Source: an uncultured Candidatus Saccharibacteria bacterium | Lineage (GTDB): Bacteria > Patescibacteriota > Minisyncoccia > Phycocordibacterales > UBA5272 | Direction: 5' to 3' | Assembly: GCA_964546555.1 (NCBI GenBank) | Contig: CAZJJX010000002.1 | Location: forward strand, 16,263-80,262 | DNA: 64,000 nucleotides | In this document: positions 21,432 through 61,907 of the stretch, piece by piece | How the letters are laid out: every line of letters starts with the position of its first letter | Numbering within the stretch: the first letter of the stretch is position 1 | The notes under the pieces: generated by a model | Databases searched by the model: none | Seen by the model: the letters and a program-made list of their open reading frames with translations, nothing else | Told to the model about the DNA's origin: nothing | Position numbers and translations under genes: made by a program

Positions 21432-21496
21432 AAGAGGAGATTTTGCTACTAGTGTTATACTATTAACTATCCACTAATAACTAATCACTATTTACT

Positions 21497-21958
21497 ATGT
21501 ATCTTAACAAAGTATTTCTATTCGGTAACTTAACTCGTGACCCAGAGCAAAAGTCACTTCCAAACGGAACTGCAGTCACGAACTTCTCGCTTGCAACTAA
21601 TCGTACCTATAAAGATGCAAATGGCGCACGTCAAGAGCAGGTAGAGTATCACAACATTGTTGTCTTTGGTCGCCAAGCAGAAACAAGTGCCCAGTATCTA
21701 AAGAAGGGTCAGGGTGTTATGATCGAAGGAAGAATATCAACTCGTTCATGGGATGACAAAACAACTGGAGAAAAAAAGTACCGAACAGAGATTATTGCTG
21801 ATGCTGTACAGTTCGGGCCAAAGTCAGGAGGGGCTCCTTCTGCTGAAGGGTTCACAGGTAATCCTGGGCCAACAAGTCAAAAGGCAACACCAGCAACTGA
21901 TCTCGATACGATTGATTATGGAGATGCTAATGTTAACCTCGACGACATCCCATTTTAA
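21497..21958 (+). CDS. ssb: single-stranded DNA-binding protein
   Basis: OB fold 'NKVFLFGNLTRDPE', C-terminal acidic tail ending 'DDIPF'. Confidence 0.9.
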   Translation: MYLNKVFLFGNLTRDPEQKSLPNGTAVTNFSLATNRTYKDANGARQEQVEYHNIVVFGRQAETSAQYLKKGQGVMIEGRISTRSWDDKTTGEKKYRTEIIADAVQFGPKSGGAPSAEGFTGNPGPTSQKATPATDLDTIDYGDANVNLDDIPF

Positions 21959-32156: not shown

Positions 32157-32198
32157 CAGTGCTTAGTGTTATGTGCGCTCTTTCGTGTATACTGTTTT

Positions 32199-32228
32199 CT
32201 AAAGTCTAAAGTCTAAAGTCTAAAGTCT
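32199..32228. repeat. heptanucleotide tandem repeat (CTAAAGT)x4.3 in 5' region of beta-CASP RNase gene
   Basis: 'TCTAAAGTCTAAAGTCTAAAGTCTAAAGTCTG' directly read; 12 nt upstream of ATG 32240. Confidence 0.85.
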
Positions 32229-33613: not shown

Positions 33614-33640
33614 ACGTTGATAGCTAATAGCAGATAGCTT

Positions 33641-33991
33641 ATGGCAGATTACAAAACACTCAGAGTTTGGCAAAGATCAACAAGTTTTTGTATTTCAATT
33701 TATAAAATCACTAAAAAATTTCCTTCTGAGGAACAGTTTGGAATAATTTCTCAATTACGTCGAGCTTCTTTGTCAATTCCTTCAAACATTGCAGAGGGAA
33801 GTAAAAGGTCAACTGATAAAAGTTACGCATCTTTTTTAAGAATTTCCTTAGGATCTGGAGCAGAGATCGAAACACAATTATACATTGCAAAAGAATTGGA
33901 ATATATTTCGAACGAAGAATATAAAGAATTAATTTTTGAGCTTAGTGAAATAATGAAAATGCTAATGATGTTTATTAAAAAAGTTGTGTAA
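33641..33991 (+). CDS. four-helix-bundle protein (TIGR02436 / '23S rRNA intervening-sequence protein', Avd-like)
   Basis: 'SQLRRASLSIPSNIAEGSKR', 'SLGSGAEIETQLYIAKEL' signatures. Confidence 0.8.
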   Translation: MADYKTLRVWQRSTSFCISIYKITKKFPSEEQFGIISQLRRASLSIPSNIAEGSKRSTDKSYASFLRISLGSGAEIETQLYIAKELEYISNEEYKELIFELSEIMKMLMMFIKKVV

Positions 33992-34092
33992 GTGCAGTAT
34001 TGAATTGAGTTACTATAAGCTACTGTCTATTAGCCATAAGCAACTTACACTATACACTACCAACTATTAACCATTAACTATATACTGTTTAC

Positions 34093-34668
34093 ATGAAATC
34101 AGAACGAATTACAATCAGTGTGTCAGGTGCAGCAGAGATAGCACATTGCGGCCCATCAGTTATTCCAATTGCTAAAGAATTAGGGCGAGAGATTGCACGA
34201 CAAGGTGCACAGATTGCAACAGGGGCAACAAGTGGTTTCCCTCTTTATGCTGCAGAGGGCGCAAAAGAAGTTGGGGGATTTTCTTTCGGGCTTTCGCCAG
34301 CCGCTAGTAAAAAAGAGCATCTAGAAGTCTATCGTTTACCTACAAAGGCAATGGACGCAATTATTTATACTGGGTTTGGTTTCCCGGGCCGAGATTTGAT
34401 GCTTATCCGGTCATCAGATGCGGTTGTTATAGGTTGTGGGCGTATTGGTACCATTCATGAGTTTACCGTTGCCTGGGAGGCAAATATGCCTCTTGGGGTG
34501 CTTGAGGGTGAGTGGGCAACAGACGAGGTTATTAAAAATATTATTGCCAACAGCAATCGCTCAAACCCAAACGTAGTCTTTGAAAAAGATCCAAAAATCA
34601 TGATTGAAAAATTGATCAAGATGGTGCGTGACAAGGAGGGGAACGGTGAGCGAGAGATGAGATTGTAG
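34093..34668 (+). CDS. LOG/TIGR00725-family Rossmann-fold protein (SLOG-like)
   Basis: 'TGATSGFPLYAAEGA', 'VIGCGRIGTIHEFTVAWE' (PGGxGTxxE-like motif). Confidence 0.55.
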   Translation: MKSERITISVSGAAEIAHCGPSVIPIAKELGREIARQGAQIATGATSGFPLYAAEGAKEVGGFSFGLSPAASKKEHLEVYRLPTKAMDAIIYTGFGFPGRDLMLIRSSDAVVIGCGRIGTIHEFTVAWEANMPLGVLEGEWATDEVIKNIIANSNRSNPNVVFEKDPKIMIEKLIKMVRDKEGNGEREMRL

Positions 34669-34669
34669 C

Positions 34670-34790
34670 AGAGATAACAGATAACAGACTTTAAGACCAT
34701 TACGCATTCAGAAAATACAGAGTTGTAACCGAAGGTCACAACTCTGTATTTTTGTAGTCTGATGTCTGAAAGCGTAGCGGTCTGATTGTC
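34670..34790. repeat. MITE-like repeat element copy a (terminal 'CAGATAACAGAC'/'AGCGTAGCGGTCTGAT' ends, central CGAAGG hairpin terminator 34712-34754)
   Basis: 'AATACAGAGTTGT-AACCGAAGGTC-ACAACTCTGTATT' + TTTTT, followed by 'TCTGAAAGCGTAGCGGTCTGAT' motif shared with 35583, 35669 and 52035. Confidence 0.5.
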
Positions 34791-34827
34791 TACAGGTCGC
34801 ACCAAGTTCTCCTGCTATACTATTTCC

Positions 34828-44314: not shown

Positions 44315-44711
44315 TGGTGGAGATGGCGAGAATCGAACTCGCGTGTACTAAGGTATGAGGTATGGGTCTACTGTACGTAGTTTGCTTCATGTGTTCGCAT
44401 TCATTATTAAAAGCAAACTAAAGCAATGAATGTATAGCATGAATTATTTCAAGTATAGTGTTATGCAACACTGTGCTCTACATCTACTGTTATATTGCCA
44501 GCAGTCATCCCGTAGATGCGAACGAAAGTGACACCAGATCGGCCAGTAATTTAGGCGAATGCTGGAACTAGTCCGTTTGCCATGTATGGTGAACGGATAG
44601 CCTTACCAGTTGAGTTTGCAACATGGTCTCTCCGGTCTTTTACGAGTTGCGGAGAATTCTCGGTACAGCACATACAACATATTCTTAGTATCGATGCCAA
44701 AGATCATCCCC
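44315..44711 (-). ncRNA. ssrA: tmRNA (SsrA), ~397 nt; predicted tag (A)ANGLVPAFA
   Basis: 3' tRNA-like end 'GCGAG-TTCGATT-CTCGC-CATCTCC-A-CCA' (44315-44343); 5' 'GGGGGATGATCTTTGGCATCGATAC' pairs to give a G3:U70 acceptor stem; internal 'GCA AAC GGA CTA GTT CCA GCA TTC GCC TAA' (44551-44580); smpB 400 bp away. Confidence 0.75.
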
Positions 44712-48055: not shown

Positions 48056-48128
48056 GCATCCATAGCTCAGTTGGTAGAGCCGTCGTCTTATACACGACTG
48101 GTCCCTGGTTCGAGTCCAGGTGGATGCA
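48056..48128 (+). tRNA. tRNA-Ile, anticodon UAU (reads AUA); CCA not encoded
   Basis: Cloverleaf by hand: acceptor GCATCCA/TGGATGC, D GCTC/GAGC, anticodon stem GTCGT/ACGAC with loop CTTATAC (U33, anticodon TAT, A37), T arm CCTGG-TTCGAGT-CCAGG, discriminator A. Confidence 0.75.
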
Positions 48129-48173
48129 CTTTGGGGATAAGGTGCGAATGAAATCAAAATACGATGTAGTATA
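48117..48173 (+). repeat. 57-bp direct repeat, copy 1 (includes tRNA 3' end)
   Basis: 'CAGGTGGATGCACTTTGGGGATAAGGTGCGAATGAAATCAAAATACGATGTAGTATA'. Confidence 0.8.
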
Positions 48174-48889: not shown

Positions 48890-51112
48890 CTACTCCATAT
48901 GTACTTTTTCCTTTGCATCGATTGTGTTCTTTAGAAGTTCGTGATGTTCCAAAGTAGGATCTTGCTCGACGAGTTTTTTTGCTTCTTGTTGAGCAATATC
49001 TACGAGCTTCGGATTTTTGATTGCTTCCATTGCCAGATCACTTACGCCCCATTGTTTACCATCAAAGAGAGTCCCTATACCGCGTGTGAGCATATCTTGT
49101 TCAGCAAGCTCAAAGCCATTCTTTGCATGTACAAGCGCTTTGAGTCGTGTGTACGTGGTCTCTCCGGTGCTTTCGGTAAAGAGATAACAATATGACTGGT
49201 GCTCTGCTCTTCCTACTCGTCCACGAAGCTGATGGAGTTGCGCAAGTCCGAACCTGTCAGCATGTTCAATAATAATAACTGTTGCGTTTGGGACATTAAC
49301 ACCAACCTCAACAACAGATGTCGCAACCAAGATGTCAGATTTTTTGTCCAAGAAATCTTGCATCACTTCTTCTTTTTCTTCTTTCTTCATTTTGCTATGT
49401 AAAATATCGACAACGAATTCAGGAAAGATCTGGTGTGCGAGTCTGTCTGCTTCTTCTTTGACGCTCTTGAGAATTCTCTTTTGACGCTCTTCCTCATCTT
49501 GCTCATCGATGCGTGGGCAAATAACGTACACTTGTCTCCCAGATTGAAGTTCTTTGCGTACATGCTCATACATCTCACTTCGCTTACTGCTTTTGATTAT
49601 CTCTGTAATAATTTTTTTACGATTCTTCGGCATCGCATCAATAACAGTAAGGTCAAGATCTCCAAACATGGTAAGTGCAAGTGTACGAGGGATAGGGGTT
49701 GCTGTCATTGATAGGAGGTGAGGGATCGTGGAAGCATCGTTTCCGCTTGCAAGTGCTTTTCTTTGCTTTACCCCAAATCTATGTTGTTCATCAATAATGA
49801 CAAGGGCTAATTGTTCGAACTTAACACTCTTTTGAATAAGAGCATGAGTTCCAATGACAATTGATATCTTCCCATCTTTTATCCATGTAAGAAGCTGAGC
49901 GCGTGAGATTGAGGTTGAGTCATCATTTGTTTTGCTCGGGAACTTCTTACACCCATTTCCAGTAAGTAACCCGATCTCAATCCCTGTTCCTTTGAAATAA
50001 CTAACAAAGCTTTCAAAATGTTGTTTGGCAAGAATTTCAGTTGGAGCCATGTATGCAACTTGTAAGCGTTTACCATGTGTGGTTGCTCTATGACGTAGCA
50101 CAGCATGAGCAACAACCGCTGCAACAAACGTCTTACCACTACCAACATCACCCTCAAGTAGGCGTCCCATAGGCGTGCCGCTTCCCATATCTTCAAGAAT
50201 TGTCTTAATTGCCTGATTTTGAGCATCTGTTGGGGTGAAAGGGAATGTTCCAATAAACTTTTTCATTTCTTTAGTGTCTGTGGTGATAGTATAAGCATGT
50301 TCATTTTTAGCGGCTGCCTTTTCTTTGTGTTGTTTAACCTGAAGATGAAAAATTTCTTCGAATGCAAATCGTTTTCGTGCTGCAATTGTAAGATCTTCAG
50401 ATTTTGGAAAATGAATATAGAGTAGCGCCTCACGAAGTGTGGGCAAGTGTAGACGCTTACAGAGTTCTTGAGGAAGTGTGTCTTCTACAAAATCAAGAAT
50501 ATTTGTAGCGAGGGCTTTCTTAAGAAGGCTCTGGATGTAGAGCGATGTAACACCTTTTGTTTCTGGATAAATAGGGGTTAGCAGGGACATGTCTTTTTTA
50601 TTCAGTGATTTCCCTGCATCTGTTTCTCTTTGTTCTGCCATTGTTGTAAAGAGGGATTCTCCGCTTTCGGGAATGATAGATACTTTTTCAATGCTTGGGT
50701 TTGAAAGAAATATTCCTTTACTGTCTTCTTGGACGATTCCTGACACGCGAACCTTTGTGCCATCAGGGTACATCTTGCCAATATATGCTTGGTTAAACCA
50801 GATGCATCTGATGTGACCTGTGTTATCTACAACACGTGCTTCAGTCATTGGAATATGCCCTCGGAAACTTCTTCGGACTGCAACTTTTTCCATGATACCG
50901 TAGAGTACGATTGACTGACCTTTTGTAAGGTTTGTAGCACCTGTCATACCTTCCATGTTTACATAGCGTAATGGAAAATGTCTAAGAAGTTCCTCGATTG
51001 TTGTAATGTGCAGTCGAAGTAATCCAGCTTTATGATCAGAGGATAGACGGGTGAGAGACTCAAGAGATGATCTAAGGTTATAGGTATTAGGTTGTAGGTT
51101 TAAAGGGTTCAT
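48890..51112 (-). CDS. recG: ATP-dependent DNA helicase RecG
   Basis: Wedge/OB N-domain, 'GDVGSGKTFVAAV' Walker A, 'DEQHRFGV' DEQH box, helicase C motifs 'LHSKMKKEEKE', 'TSVVEVGVNVPNA', 'QLRGRVGR'. Confidence 0.85.
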   Translation of the reverse strand: MNPLNLQPNTYNLRSSLESLTRLSSDHKAGLLRLHITTIEELLRHFPLRYVNMEGMTGATNLTKGQSIVLYGIMEKVAVRRSFRGHIPMTEARVVDNTGHIRCIWFNQAYIGKMYPDGTKVRVSGIVQEDSKGIFLSNPSIEKVSIIPESGESLFTTMAEQRETDAGKSLNKKDMSLLTPIYPETKGVTSLYIQSLLKKALATNILDFVEDTLPQELCKRLHLPTLREALLYIHFPKSEDLTIAARKRFAFEEIFHLQVKQHKEKAAAKNEHAYTITTDTKEMKKFIGTFPFTPTDAQNQAIKTILEDMGSGTPMGRLLEGDVGSGKTFVAAVVAHAVLRHRATTHGKRLQVAYMAPTEILAKQHFESFVSYFKGTGIEIGLLTGNGCKKFPSKTNDDSTSISRAQLLTWIKDGKISIVIGTHALIQKSVKFEQLALVIIDEQHRFGVKQRKALASGNDASTIPHLLSMTATPIPRTLALTMFGDLDLTVIDAMPKNRKKIITEIIKSSKRSEMYEHVRKELQSGRQVYVICPRIDEQDEEERQKRILKSVKEEADRLAHQIFPEFVVDILHSKMKKEEKEEVMQDFLDKKSDILVATSVVEVGVNVPNATVIIIEHADRFGLAQLHQLRGRVGRAEHQSYCYLFTESTGETTYTRLKALVHAKNGFELAEQDMLTRGIGTLFDGKQWGVSDLAMEAIKNPKLVDIAQQEAKKLVEQDPTLEHHELLKNTIDAKEKVHME
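51073..51098. repeat. 26-bp inverted repeat, left arm (overlaps first codons of recG)
   Basis: 'AGGTTATAGGTATTAGGTTGTAGGTT' = reverse complement of 51481-51506 with 1 mismatch (G.U in plus-strand RNA). Confidence 0.8.
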
Positions 51113-51468
51113 TTTATTATGTTAATTTATGAATCATTGAATTTAGCATTTTCATTATTTCGATGAGTTTATTATTTAGTTCATCGTACTTATCTTTCCC
51201 CAGGTATCCCTAGATCTTTAGAAAAAAGTAATTGGGTTTCAATCTCTGCGCTTGAACCATATGCCATAATAATAAAAGACCGGTAATCTTTTCTCGTTCC
51301 CCGTTTACTTCCTTCCGCAATATTTGAAGGTATTGAAAGTGATGCCCTTCGTAGTTGTGATACTAGTCCATATTTTTCATCAGCTGGAAAATTTTTTGTT
51401 ACTGAATATACCTCAAGACCAAATTTGTATGATTGTTGCCAGACAGTAAGTTCTTTGTACGATGTCAT
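51112..51468 (-). pseudogene. four-helix-bundle (Avd-like/TIGR02436) gene, second copy, interrupted by +1 frameshift near 51205
   Basis: 'SQLRRASLSIPSNIAEGSKRGT...GSSAEIETQLLFSKDLG' in one frame, conserved C-terminal helix 'YLGKDKYDELNNKLIEIMKMLNSMIHKLT' in the next frame; an extra A after GGG restores it. Confidence 0.65.
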
Positions 51469-51480
51469 TTTGTATTTTAT

Positions 51481-51507
51481 AACCTACAACTTAATACCTA
51501 TAACCTT
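51481..51507. repeat. 26-bp inverted repeat, right arm
   Basis: 'AACCTACAACTTAATACCTATAACCT' followed by GCTTTTTTG. Confidence 0.8.
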
Positions 51508-51516
51508 GCTTTTTTG

Positions 51517-51888
51517 TTACCTAAACTGTGCTGCACGTCGTGTATAGATGATAAGCGCAAGGGTGACCAAGATAAGCACAAAGAGAAGCATGTTTGCGCT
51601 TGTATAGCTATGCATTGAAAAGTTAATATAGAGTTCCGTTGAGAGGATAAGGAGGACAATGATAAGTGGGAATATCGGTCGAGGCCAAATAAGAATAAGA
51701 AGACCAAGCGCGATGAAGAATGAGTGCCAAAGGGTAAAGGTGATACTTTCTGATATTTGTATAGACTGATTAATGCACTCAAAAAGAGCCATTTTAGCTT
51801 TTTTTACACCAGCGGTAAGTGCTTGTGCATGAGGGTAAATGAAGTAGAGCGCTACTGCAAGTCTAAGAAGATATGGCCAGATAAACAT
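51517..51888 (-). CDS. hypothetical 4-TM membrane protein (DoxX-like, tentative)
   Basis: Four hydrophobic helices; weak family resemblance only. Confidence 0.35.
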   Translation of the reverse strand: MFIWPYLLRLAVALYFIYPHAQALTAGVKKAKMALFECINQSIQISESITFTLWHSFFIALGLLILIWPRPIFPLIIVLLILSTELYINFSMHSYTSANMLLFVLILVTLALIIYTRRAAQFR

Positions 51889-51948
51889 AGGGTTATTATA
51901 TCATGGGTAATAAGGAAGACTACAGATCAGGGGGTATACAGATATTAA

Positions 51949-52064
51949 ATCGCTACCTGTTAGTTGTCAGTTAAATACAATACACGCTACGCGAAGGCTT
52001 TGCCTTCGCGTAATATCCTCTAGTATTTGTCTGTTATCTGTTAGCGTAGCGGTCTGTTTGTCTG
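51949..52064. repeat. MITE-like repeat element copy d (GC hairpin CGCGAAGG-CTTTG-CCTTCGCG + 'TATCTGTTAGCGTAGCGGTCTG')
   Basis: Shares 20-nt motif with copies at 34764, 35583(rc), 35669. Confidence 0.45.
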
Positions 52065-52073
52065 AAATCTTTC

Positions 52074-54248
52074 CTACTGTTCCTCGCTCTTGACTACCTG
52101 TACCCGTTTTGTTTCCTTATTGCCATTACCGCAGTCATAGACGAAGTCTGTCGTGTAATTAATCTTCAGTGTCTTTTTACCAAGCGCTCTCCAGTCTGTG
52201 CCTAGATGTCCAGGTGCTACTGTTTTTATTGCGGTTGTGAGTACACGTGATGTAGCAGGGTCATTCACGTCAGTTGTTGTTGCATTTAAGATAGCATTAA
52301 GTGAGCTTGATGCTGCAAGTTGGAGCGCACTACATGCATTGTTTGCACACACAACACGTGCGTAGAGCATACAACTAGAAGTTGGGTAGACGGTGTCCCA
52401 TGTAAGAGTCGCAGGTTCACCGATAACGATAGAAGGCGGAGTAACATTGAGTGTCACATCAGGTGTTCCTGGCGTTGCGTCGTAATATCGAGTGACTTGG
52501 TCGTAGATGTTGCCGTGCGCACATCGTATAACATAGTTCCCTTCACTTGTTATACCGCCTATCACAACTGGTCCACTATATGATGTTGTAGCAACAAAAA
52601 TTGAATCATTATAGTACACAGCGTAGCTGTCCGTATCTGTGTTGTCACATGTAAGTGTGATCGTTCCAGGAGGGTAGAGCTCACCGTCAACTACAGCACT
52701 GATTACCTGAGGATCTGCACATGCTGAGTTCATACTATCCCATCTATCTGACCCGGTACACGCAACAGTAACATCAGTCCATGGTGTTCCACAATTATTT
52801 GTTTCGTCAGATTCAGTGATTACGCCACCACCTGCTGATGAAGTTTTATCAGTACATAGCCTCACAGAGTACGTACCTGGTCCACCAGGGAACGTGTATG
52901 TTTTATTAATTACTCTACTTCCTCCCGCAGCTAATGTTGATGTGCTGGATGAAGGTAAGTCAGTAATAGTTCCTCCTCCATTTGATTGATCGGCTACCTG
53001 GAAGAAGTTGCTAAATGATCCACCAGTTGAAAATGTTCCACCATTTGTAATGGTTCCAGAGAGTATTGTATCTGTTCCAGGTACAGCAGAAGAAGGTGAT
53101 GCAACTGAAGCGGTAAGGTCTATATATCCTGTACCACATGTTACACCATCCCAAGGTGTAGAAGGGTCACAAACAACAAGTGAACGTGTTGGTGGAGGGG
53201 TTGGGCCGTAGCGTAGACCTAGTGCTGCGTTATCGTATGCGGCAGCTTGGATTGTGTAAGTGCCTGTACCGGCAGGTGTAAACACAAAGTCTAGGGTTTT
53301 ACTTGTTGTTGCAGTAAATGGGGCACGGTTCGCAACCCATCCCCCGTTACTTTGAGTTCCTCCTGTACTTGTTGCAGTGTATCCAGGTATTGCGTATGTG
53401 TTCCATGTCCAGTTACTTATAGGGGCAGGTGCTAGCCAGTCCATGACGAGATTTGTCATGTCACCGTTTGCATCGTACGCTTCCATATGAACATCAACAT
53501 TACCTCCAAGAGTTATACCTGTTTGCGAAACTGTAAAGACTGGAATGGTTGGTAAAGGGTTAACAAGGATAGAAACTGTTGAATATCCATGTCCTAATGT
53601 GTTGTAACATGAAAACATGTAGTCTGTTGATGATGAAAAAGGACTGCTCGGGTTCCAGTCAACACCGTGGGTTGCAAGATAAGTGTCTGTAGCATTAAGG
53701 AGAGTCCATGCAGATGTAAGGTCAGGGTAACGGTAGTACATCCCACACGTATCTGCCCCAACTTCAGTAAACGTTATATGCGATGTCCCTCCAGGTAAAA
53801 CAACGGTCGGCGTTGCAGTAGCTGTAACAACTGGTGGGCCAGCAACACATGTAGTGCCGTTCCAAGAAGAAGACCCAGCAAGATCCCACTTTCCGCAGCA
53901 TCGTGACTGATCAGGGTTTACATTAATTGTATCGCTTGCAGACATACCGTCACAGACAAGTGTTACGGTGCATGTTGCGGCAGGGTAAATAGTAGATGAA
54001 CTTGAAGTATTAGGGGTGATGGTAAAGTTACAAGAAGAGATGGATCCACCGCCTGGAGTTGTGTCATCTGGCGTACATGCACCCGAGGTATTACTTGATG
54101 ACCAGTAAAGTGTTTGAGGTTCTCCTGGGCAAACATCAGAAATAGCAAAAACAGGGACATATGCTAGAAGGGTGAGTGATACTAATGCGAAAGCAAGTAA
54201 CGTTTGACGAAGTGGGTTTCTGTGAGATCTGTGAGAATAGTGCAACAT
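52074..54248 (-). CDS. large secreted/surface Cys-, Thr-, Gly-rich protein (724 aa)
   Basis: N-terminal signal/anchor 'LLAFALVSLTLLAYVPVFA'; low-complexity T/S/G stretches and many Cys. Confidence 0.5.
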   Translation of the reverse strand: MLHYSHRSHRNPLRQTLLAFALVSLTLLAYVPVFAISDVCPGEPQTLYWSSSNTSGACTPDDTTPGGGSISSCNFTITPNTSSSSTIYPAATCTVTLVCDGMSASDTINVNPDQSRCCGKWDLAGSSSWNGTTCVAGPPVVTATATPTVVLPGGTSHITFTEVGADTCGMYYRYPDLTSAWTLLNATDTYLATHGVDWNPSSPFSSSTDYMFSCYNTLGHGYSTVSILVNPLPTIPVFTVSQTGITLGGNVDVHMEAYDANGDMTNLVMDWLAPAPISNWTWNTYAIPGYTATSTGGTQSNGGWVANRAPFTATTSKTLDFVFTPAGTGTYTIQAAAYDNAALGLRYGPTPPPTRSLVVCDPSTPWDGVTCGTGYIDLTASVASPSSAVPGTDTILSGTITNGGTFSTGGSFSNFFQVADQSNGGGTITDLPSSSTSTLAAGGSRVINKTYTFPGGPGTYSVRLCTDKTSSAGGGVITESDETNNCGTPWTDVTVACTGSDRWDSMNSACADPQVISAVVDGELYPPGTITLTCDNTDTDSYAVYYNDSIFVATTSYSGPVVIGGITSEGNYVIRCAHGNIYDQVTRYYDATPGTPDVTLNVTPPSIVIGEPATLTWDTVYPTSSCMLYARVVCANNACSALQLAASSSLNAILNATTTDVNDPATSRVLTTAIKTVAPGHLGTDWRALGKKTLKINYTTDFVYDCGNGNKETKRVQVVKSEEQ

Positions 54249-61856: not shown

Positions 61857-61907
61857 TATGTATTGTATTAACTAATAACTAATTACTAACAACTAATAAC
61901 TAACCAT

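Follow-up and report, generated by a model that had tools for sequence, protein, structure and literature searches.

On the minus strand of a 64,000-nucleotide stretch from an uncultured Candidatus Saccharibacteria bacterium (contig CAZJJX010000002.1; this whole stretch is called the window), the gene recG starts between the arms of a long inverted repeat. The same arms enclose a small, broken gene of the four-helix-bundle family PF05635 (23S_rRNA_IVP). How did a housekeeping gene come to begin there? An original prediction, made before any database search, left two answers. Either an element resembling the intervening sequences (IVSs) of 23S rRNA inserted at the 5′ end of recG, which then acquired a new start inside the repeat, or a long stem is used to process or regulate the recG 5′ end. 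The evidence below favors the first answer, and the second is compatible with it. It is highly likely that the recG element is an IVS-type cassette that inserted at the recG start and had one of its arms co-opted as coding sequence. Our overall best explanation, an IVS-type element in an mRNA operon with processing and translational coupling as inferred consequences, has in our estimate a probability of about 0.7.

Anatomy and origin of the recG element

A repeat search found two arms of 27 nt each that are complementary at 26 of 27 positions (96%) and lie 380 nt apart, in an element of 434 nt (Table 1). The near-perfect 26 bp inverted repeat of the original prediction is thus real and slightly longer, but its single mismatch, which had been described as G.U in RNA, would be G.U only if the antisense strand were transcribed; in the sense (minus-strand) RNA it is A.C. 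Within the window, the arm 27-mer is confined to these two sites when up to three mismatches are allowed (0 expected in 100 shuffles), and the minimum-free-energy fold of the sense transcript pairs both arms. Other repeats in 50000–52500 are just short two-copy matches (direct repeats of 14–20 nt and inverted pairs that are 74–92% complementary). The arms are tandem heptamers, a feature that the original prediction had not noted, and are reported by Tandem Repeats Finder at 51075–51100 with a period of 7 and 3.7 copies. The 5′ arm lies 9 nt past the stop of the upstream membrane-protein gene and 12 nt ahead of the cassette ATG, and every one of its three frames contains a stop. The 3′ arm is free of stops in the recG frame and, where an overlap with the early codons had been predicted, coincides exactly with codons 5–13.

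The gene in the loop is a four-helix-bundle gene broken by a frameshift, as had been noticed at the outset. Frame 1 opens with the ATG at 51468 and reaches a stop at 51190 after 92 aa, and a +1 frameshift separates the conserved last helix, the C-terminal 29 residues (YLGKDKY...MIHKLT), which are in the next frame up to TAA TAA at 51119–51114. Once the frame is repaired, the protein matches PF05635 (E 4.4e-40; 136.6 bits against a cut-off of 33.8) and TIGR02436 (E 7e-38; 129 bits against a cut-off of 24). The nearest solved structure is XCC0516 (PDB 2GSC, E 1e-19), whose deposited entry has five chains with one sequence and which PMC4990558 describes as a homopentamer. Deletion of any one base within 51193–51210 restores the frame. 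The extra base had been taken for an A near 51205. Alignment to orthologs moves it to the nearby GGG: all ten intact orthologs read KD(L/F)-x-Y or KEL-x-Y at the shift site, the four closest of them KDLGY(I/L), which makes a G in 51208–51210 the likeliest extra base. Removing one G there gives KDLGYLGKDKY.

The frameshift is real in this population and is not an error of one assembly, because three other assemblies carry the identical sequence. Contigs of three other samples (JGI 3300045388, JGI 3300045345, and SRR23702466), located via an exact-sequence look-up of the neighboring membrane protein, are 100% identical over 51043–51530, and the 92-aa product is called on each of them. An exact look-up of the RecG protein in public assemblies gave no match. 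The frameshift is also recent: past it, the divergence from relatives does not exceed that among intact copies. Programmed frameshifting was considered and rejected; no slippery motif was recognized on reading the sequence, and the shift is not conserved in relatives. Cassette genes that have one arm type in common are saturated at synonymous sites (dS >1), with a ratio of nonsynonymous to synonymous divergence (dN/dS) of 0.07–0.17; the cassette protein is evidently under purifying selection in these relatives. A further PF05635 gene lies downstream of recG in a Nomurabacteria genome (locus L010, 5689–6035, minus strand of the locus). It was recovered as two overlapping tblastn pieces (residues 1–65 and 64–116), which indicates a frameshift at a position other than that in the window.

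The recG ATG was predicted to abut the stop of the cassette gene. It lies 1 nt past the repaired stop and 9 nt (codons 2–4) upstream of the arm, and the stem starts at +13 of recG. This ATG in the loop seems to be the only plausible start, with the arm translated as part of RecG, because codon 1 is the only ATG, GTG, or TTG before codon 53 and the wedge domain is expected to begin at about residue 16 (the match starts at residue 31, which is Pfam profile position 16). No Shine-Dalgarno-like motif was found ahead of the recG ATG. By this reading the arm would supply 9 of the roughly 8–10 extra residues at the RecG N-terminus.

Relatives show the site in several states. A scan of genome contigs gave 80 recG loci, 11 of them close (RecG identity of 65–76%) and 69 distant (~50%). 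The RecG homologs that are 67–76% identical are labeled Paceibacteria, Nomurabacteria, or Parcubacteria (Patescibacteria, or Candidate Phyla Radiation, CPR) where they are named. The genome of the window is itself read as Paceibacteria-like, within the same Patescibacteria. Among the best 120 homologs, the N-terminus is either short (e.g., MKTSLDAPISSLSRISPDH) or 8–12 residues longer, and the extra residues of the long forms are translated heptamers (NLQPTTYNL, KLQSTVYSLQS, KLQATSYKLQA, KANSQKLTA, TRYTLHATRL). The DNA was retrieved for a sample of these loci, cited here by number. L088 is an empty site. It has the shared membrane gene, 10 nt, and then the recG ATG (MKISLDSPISS), with no repeat, no cassette, and no N-terminal extension of recG. 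The 26-mer is thus not ordinary recG sequence. Ten sites are filled (L001–L004, L081–L084, L087, and L172), all with intact open reading frames (ORFs) of 116–120 aa. In eight of them (L001, L002, L003, L081, L082, L083, L087, and L172) the 5′ arm precedes the PF05635 gene and the 3′ arm lies within the recG N-terminus. In L004 and L084 both arms are intergenic and the 3′ arm is upstream of the recG ATG. The stop of the cassette gene overlaps the recG ATG as ATGA in L001, L003, L083, and L172, and the two are 1–6 nt apart in the window, L002, L081, L082, and L087.

Two loci show partial or layered states. The cassette of L084 (2074–2540) has tight intergenic arms (GATATCAGACATACAGACAATCAGACT / AGTCTGTTAGTCTGACTGTCTGATATC), and recG still opens with an unpaired (GCTACAA)x4 array, which suggests that a new cassette replaced, or was nested in, an older one. 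L085 (2455–2545) lacks the ORF and has heptamer arms, AGCTTGTAGTTTCAGCTTGTAGTATGTAGC and AAAAGCTACACGCTACACGC, on either side of the recG ATG with ~35 nt between them. An additional heptamer array and a terminator hairpin occur upstream of the membrane gene of L085. The L086 spacer folds no better than shuffles. None of the 69 distant loci has a cassette upstream of recG. Comparison of these states indicates that the ancestral site consisted of the membrane-gene stop, ~10 nt, and the recG ATG. Because the short state is ancestral, given the empty L088 and the distant loci without a cassette, the element is an insertion, which displaced the original recG start. The insertion part of the original prediction is therefore upheld by one empty and ten filled sites, and the part that placed the new start inside the repeat is not, as the ATG is in the loop.

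The RecG proteins revealed a different kind of insert as well. In about 20 of the 120 best homologs (863–915 aa), helicase motifs II (DEQH) and III (SMTATP) are separated by ~150 additional in-frame residues that make up a whole PF13366 (PDDEXK_3, "GxxExxY") domain, e.g., at L172:2540–2990 (P0007). We do not claim that this is the same kind of cassette; in L172 the inverted repeat around it is weak and imperfect (score 10), and clear heptamers are missing.

At this fixed site, the ORF and the arms are exchanged together as one unit. L001 and L002 have RecG proteins that are 96% identical (residues 31–440), whereas their cassette proteins are 51% identical and their arm types differ. For L172 and L083 the values are 97% for RecG and 66% for the cassette protein. 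In both pairs the flanks are conserved at the DNA level, and the divergent block runs from just past the membrane-gene stop (between TAAC and AG...) to the outer end of the 3′ arm. Over all pairs, the identity of RecG does not correlate with that of the cassette (Spearman 0.14, p 0.3). The five loci with AACCTAC-type arms have cassette proteins that are 75–84% identical to one another and 49–64% identical to the others. The arm type follows the cassette protein and not RecG, and the unit of exchange is arm-ORF-arm. In a neighbor-joining tree of the 120 RecG proteins the arm types are scattered among short forms; the tree has no support values, and our reading leans mainly on the pairwise cases. 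The exchange may be driven either by the element itself or by homologous recombination via the conserved flanks.

The arms are also kept complementary. In a matrix of duplex energies, the best partners of every 5′ flank are 3′ flanks of the same type. The 5′ arm in the window pairs with its own 3′ arm at −39.2 kcal/mol, vs. −27 to −31 kcal/mol with those of four other AACCTAC-type loci, a difference that reflects three substitutions in one arm with counterparts in the other. L001 and L172, which have a common arm family, differ by a fully compensatory 2-bp change (GCUGUUAGC/GCUAACAGC vs. GCAAUUAGC/GCUAAUUGC). Arms are not alignable in register across arm types. The comparisons show that the arms are conserved beyond neutral expectation, with arm type kept despite the saturated synonymous sites, and that their pairing is maintained.

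The element is outside 23S and 16S rRNA, flanked by the membrane-protein gene and recG; the former is the upstream neighbor of the insertion site in all close relatives. Rfam found no rRNA in the 64-kb window and no RNA family in 50900–52150, at gathering and permissive thresholds alike. A single transcript probably covers the membrane gene, the cassette, and recG, because no promoter-like site was found inside the cassette on the minus strand in a scan whose consensus matches are weak and no commoner than in shuffles. The only promoter-like site upstream of the membrane gene is at 51970–51942. PADLOC linked neither the two cassette proteins nor the membrane protein to a defense system. The element contains no gene for a transposase, integrase, or other recombinase, and none adjoins it. 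At the arm ends we see no target-site duplication, either in the window or when L001 is compared with L002, and the relatives with empty sites are too diverged for a base-exact junction.

Table 1. Features of the recG locus and of the second cassette in the window
Feature	Coordinates	Strand	Remarks
5′ arm (sense)	51481–51507	−	AAGGTTA TAGGTAT TAAGTTG TAGGTT; ~3.9 tandem heptamers, TAG core
Four-helix-bundle gene, PF05635 23S_rRNA_IVP / TIGR02436	51114–51468	−	Frameshifted
Likeliest frameshift site	51208–51210	−	Sense GGG where orthologs have a GG(A/T) codon
3′ arm	51074–51100	−	AACCTAC AACCTAA TACCTAT AACCTT; recG codons 5–13 (NLQPNTYNL)
recG	48890–51112	−	740 aa; ATG at 51112, in the loop
Conserved 123-aa gene	51517–51888	−	Hydrophobic, probably a membrane protein; no family match
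Terminator-like hairpin (52013–51987), then promoter-like site (51970–51942)	51942–52013	−	Consensus matches only
Second cassette	33619–34034	+	Intact 116-aa PF05635 gene at 33641–33991

Heptamer arms beside other PF05635 genes

The window contains a second cassette, and the original prediction held that the two are alike in architecture but unrelated in their repeats. This is confirmed, and the same pattern recurs throughout the family. The second cassette protein is 56% identical to the first. Its arms, 33619–33643 (GATAGCT AATAGCA GATAGCT...) and 34013–34034, form an imperfect, bulged inverted repeat of a heptamer type unrelated to that of the first cassette.

A metagenome scan with the alignment of cassette proteins gave at least 80 diverse PF05635 genes with 41–58% identity. 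Seventy-three of these had enough flanking sequence, and the figures that follow for metagenome loci hold among the matches listed. We compared the 145 nt around the start with the 145 nt around the stop and called an inverted repeat when its score was at least 3 units above that of all shuffles. Such a repeat flanks 49 of the 73 genes. Cognate flank pairs have a median score of 14, vs. 7 for non-cognate pairs, and in 46 of 73 loci the cognate flank scores above 12 random non-cognate partners (~6 expected). The significant arms have a self-identity of 0.71 at lag 7 and 0.19–0.33 at the other lags from 3 to 12, whereas ORF interiors stay at 0.25–0.27 at every lag. The median element is 464 nt long (range 404–584) with a median arm of 26 nt, or about four heptamers. 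The 5′ arms mostly have a TAG or CAG core and the 3′ arms its complement. In the sequences examined, inverted heptamer arms are a general signature of PF05635 cassettes.

The position of the 3′ arm relative to the next gene could be read in 31 metagenome loci with a close downstream gene on the same strand. The arm precedes the start codon in 20 of them, in about half of which it ends within ~6 nt of the start, and 10 are ambiguous. In the remaining locus (L122, cassette at 1177–1539) an RpiB-like protein starts MNNSKLKTKNYQLKTDKNSERIFIASDHAG, and the 3′ arm is translated as KLKTKNYQLKT. This gene has no alternative start, and so here too, independently of recG, an arm serves as coding sequence.

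Loci outside this set come from finished genomes, and two of them are on plasmids. In Nostoc punctiforme the arms are (TCAGGAG)n, and in Riemerella the cassette is between a sufA-like gene and sufB, with the 3′ array reaching the sufB ATG. The locus of Nostoc 7120 has a 3′ array only. A locus of Azospirillum lipoferum (L177) is a true 23S rRNA IVS (Rfam LSU rRNA, 491 bits), with a PF05635 ORF and heptamer-periodic arms.

Heptamer arrays also occur by themselves in the window. Solo intergenic arrays are found at 21459–21498 (ACTATTA x5.7), 32198–32228 (TCTAAAG x4.4, perfect), and 61869–61903 (TAACTAA x5), and an array of the ACTAT type at ~34040–34094 is ahead of the gene at 34095. They reach the next start codon or end within a few nt of it, at the expected ribosome-binding site, and resemble 3′ arms without a partner as well as the TAACTGA arrays of Beggiatoaceae. 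Two further intergenic regions, 34668–34800 and 51958–52065, each have a strong terminator-like hairpin flanked by heptamer arrays of the CAGA/TCTG type, which are inverted in the former (fold z −5.4) and direct in the latter. They look like a dispersed ORF-less repeat, because both carry the motif AGCGTAGCGGTCTG(A/T)TTGTCT. The window also contains a tRNA-Ile gene with the anticodon TAT, which decodes AUA directly, just downstream of recG (48056–48129), and a tmRNA gene on the minus strand (44315–44711).

Proposed mechanism and alternative explanations

RNase III cleaves long, near-perfect double-stranded RNA with little sequence preference. In our model, an operon transcript that spans both arms would fold into a 27-bp duplex, and RNase III, if the organism has this enzyme, would cut the duplex as in rRNA IVSs. 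Such a cut would leave the recG ATG, which is on the loop side, apart from the rest of the gene, and cut transcripts could not make RecG. On uncut transcripts, ribosomes that finish the cassette ORF would melt the base of the stem and re-initiate at the adjoining recG ATG. Termination-reinitiation is, we infer, the most economical model. The frameshift would halt ribosomes 77 nt early, weaken the coupling, and lower the yield of RecG. Alternatively, the frameshift may be a sign of relaxed selection on an ORF whose arms persist, as in Coxiella. The cleavage and coupling steps are tentative, and we give them somewhat less than an even chance.

Several observations weigh against the explanation as a whole. 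A regular-expression search of the 64-kb window did not find the RNase III signature motif. A cut by RNase III would decapitate the recG mRNA, an odd outcome for a repair gene where the arrangement is kept in many lineages. The ORF-less hairpin of L085 folds no better than shuffles (z −0.4), and about a third of the PF05635 genes have no clear inverted repeat. In L175, on the Pseudanabaena galeata plasmid pPg_01 (45868–47012), the arrays beside the PF05635 gene are direct and not inverted, with ~15 copies of (AAAGCTA) upstream and ~10 of (AAAGCCA) downstream. The recG element is not in rRNA and so lacks the feature that gave IVSs their name. Stem mismatches, counted on the sense strand, are 24 G.U vs. 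33 A.C in the 49 metagenome loci with a repeat and 2 G.U vs. 11 A.C in seven recG-linked loci. Selection on a sense RNA helix usually leaves a preference for wobble pairs, which is missing here, and a process at the DNA level that keeps the arms alike fits this mismatch spectrum at least as well.

The strongest alternative is favored by that spectrum. The arms could be substrates of recombination or transposition at the DNA level, like terminal inverted repeats or folded attC-like sites, with their complementarity kept by the copying mechanism and the RNA stem as a by-product; the element would still be an IVS-type cassette. The lack of enrichment of G.U over A.C speaks for such substrates. 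So do the joint replacement of ORF and arms at RecG identities of 96–97%, with divergence boundaries at the outer arm ends, the nested or replaced appearance of the L084 cassette beside its older unpaired array, and the solo or ORF-less heptamer arrays scattered in intergenic regions of the same genome. Yet no recombinase gene accompanies the element and no target-site duplication is visible. The arm sequences are nearly all different, with only the 7-nt period and a YAG/CTR core in common, which would be hard for one sequence-specific recombinase to handle, and homologous recombination through the conserved flanks would give an equal pattern without mobility encoded by the element. We regard the DNA-level explanation as possible, though unlikely.

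PF05635-protein homologs form pentameric rings, and the related protein Avd binds nucleic acid and a reverse transcriptase. The heptamer arrays might accordingly be putative binding sites of the four-helix-bundle protein, in an autoregulated module of protein plus site. The arm type tracks the protein subfamily, as MTSYKELTVWQ-type proteins occur with AACCTAC arms, the 84% identical proteins of L001 and L172 both have AGCTAAC/AGCTAAT arms, and the other MRDYKK-type proteins, those of L003 and L083, have GCTACAA and GTCTACA arms. This match is equally explained by common descent of each cassette. The strong purifying selection on the protein, the homopentamer described for 2GSC (PMC4990558), and the arm size of about four heptamers are consistent with binding, but the ORF in the window is frameshifted while its arms are near-perfect, and the Coxiella protein was undetected in vivo (PMC4990558). 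We consider an autoregulated module doubtful.

Still less probable, in our judgment, is a hairpin that the host evolved to control the translation or stability of recG and whose loop holds a four-helix-bundle gene by chance. The stem begins near enough to the recG start to hinder 30S binding, the recG ATG of the ORF-less L085 is in the loop of a short heptamer hairpin, and the arrangement is retained in many lineages. The architecture of an ORF within arms belongs to the cassette and not to recG, however, because it is also found beside unrelated genes, in rRNA, and in other phyla. The arm sequence varies with the cassette and not with recG, and neither arm nor cassette is present in the 69 distant Paceibacteria loci or in many close relatives. 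An artifact, be it a sequencing or assembly error, a chimeric repeat, or programmed frameshifting, is very improbable: a short G run does hold the shift, and conservation downstream of it is still good, but three contigs from three other samples are identical over the element, GGG included, dozens of independent loci and finished genomes have the same architecture, and no recognized slippery motif was seen on reading the site, for which no dedicated test was made.

Known relatives and implications

We return to the IVS-type cassette and compare it with systems already described. The 23S IVS of Coxiella burnetii is 428–444 nt long, with a 28-bp stem of inverted repeats that has one mismatch and a bulge, and three tandem GACAGAT heptamers, strain-variable in copy number, precede its S23p ORF (PMC4990558). 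RNase III cuts it in mid-stem, and its ORF is decaying (PMC4990558). The recG element matches every anatomical point of this IVS, the decay of the ORF included. It resembles the 23S IVSs with an S23p ORF in Coxiella burnetii and Leptospira in its size (434 nt), its stem (27–28 bp with one mismatch), the tandem heptamers with a YAG core in the arm ahead of the ORF, and the PF05635 four-helix-bundle ORF in the loop. In both cases the ORF tends to decay while the arms persist, and a patchy distribution suggests horizontal movement. Unlike those IVSs, the recG element sits at an mRNA gene junction, where excision without ligation would part recG from its start codon, and one of its arms is translated as RecG. 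PF05635 genes are also found in rRNA insertions of CPR bacteria (PMC11270868).

The Avd protein of diversity-generating retroelements (bAvd, PF22296 / NF033474) has a homologous four-helix-bundle fold, and the cassette protein has a weak bAvd match (E 5e-9). It misses the Avd cut-offs, with 36.9 vs. 40 bits for PF22296 and 29.1 vs. 80 bits for NF033474 (DivGenRetAVD). Unlike Avd genes of these retroelements, it has no adjoining reverse transcriptase or pair of template and variable repeats; its neighbors are the membrane-protein gene and recG. Miniature inverted-repeat transposable elements and integron cassettes are likewise short units bounded by inverted repeats, with one small ORF and exchange as a unit at a fixed site. 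They differ from the recG element, which lacks conserved termini, a visible target-site duplication, and a nearby transposase or integrase. Its repeats, each a run of tandem heptamers, lie on both sides of the ORF.

Cyanobacterial short tandemly repeated repetitive (STRR) sequences are intergenic tandem heptamer repeats. TAACTGA heptamer arrays, which precede start codons, have been described in Beggiatoaceae, Cyanobacteria, and Bacteroidetes and were not linked to PF05635 (PMC4679880). The arms resemble STRR and TAACTGA arrays in having 2–6 or more heptamers just ahead of starts, with stops in all frames in one direction and a translatable sequence in the other. Those arrays occur in phyla rich in PF05635 paralogs, and solo arrays are present in the window. 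The reports on them describe direct arrays, in contrast to the inverted pairs found here, and no tie to PF05635 genes was found in the papers searched, which were not surveyed systematically for one.

23S_rRNA_IVP genes have also been found inside cas operons and were read as functionally associated with Cas nucleases (Zhang and Ye, 2013, PMC3936711). Such genes are wedged in on the same strand and end a few nt before the next start (cmr3/cmr2, Pleurocapsa), like the cassettes described here. L175, between cas6 and cas4, is a similar case; flanking repeats are not described in that study. The range of neighbors (recG, sufB, an RpiB-like gene, and cas genes) suggests that the cassette lodges at gene junctions whatever the function of the operon. 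PF05635 genes in cas or other operons, then, need not be functionally linked to them.

In the literature searched, which leaves out most subscription journals, we found no report that ties heptamer inverted repeats to PF05635 genes beyond rRNA. One may speculate, though we think it rather unlikely, that PF05635 genes and inverted heptamer arrays form one widespread class of exchangeable element of which the 23S IVSs are the subset noticed first. Such elements would lie at gene junctions and 5′ ends in CPR bacteria, Cyanobacteria, Bacteroidota, and Proteobacteria and would be swapped as units. Solo arrays of the STRR and TAACTGA type and extensions encoded by arms would be their footprints, and an oligomeric protein would read its own array with about one heptamer per subunit.

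IVSs have so far been treated as a curiosity of rRNA, and other PF05635 genes are annotated as isolated hypotheticals. The recG locus and its relatives show that the whole stem-loop element, and not the protein alone, exists outside rRNA. It can sit on the start of a housekeeping gene, donate coding sequence to it, and be exchanged as a unit between near-identical genomes. In annotation, gene callers run on into the stop-free 3′ arms and so extend or misplace starts. For the family, the recG locus offers a handle on the role of S23p/Avd-like proteins that lack a reverse transcriptase, on the nature of the heptamer arrays, and on how a long double-stranded RNA stem may be tolerated in mRNA.

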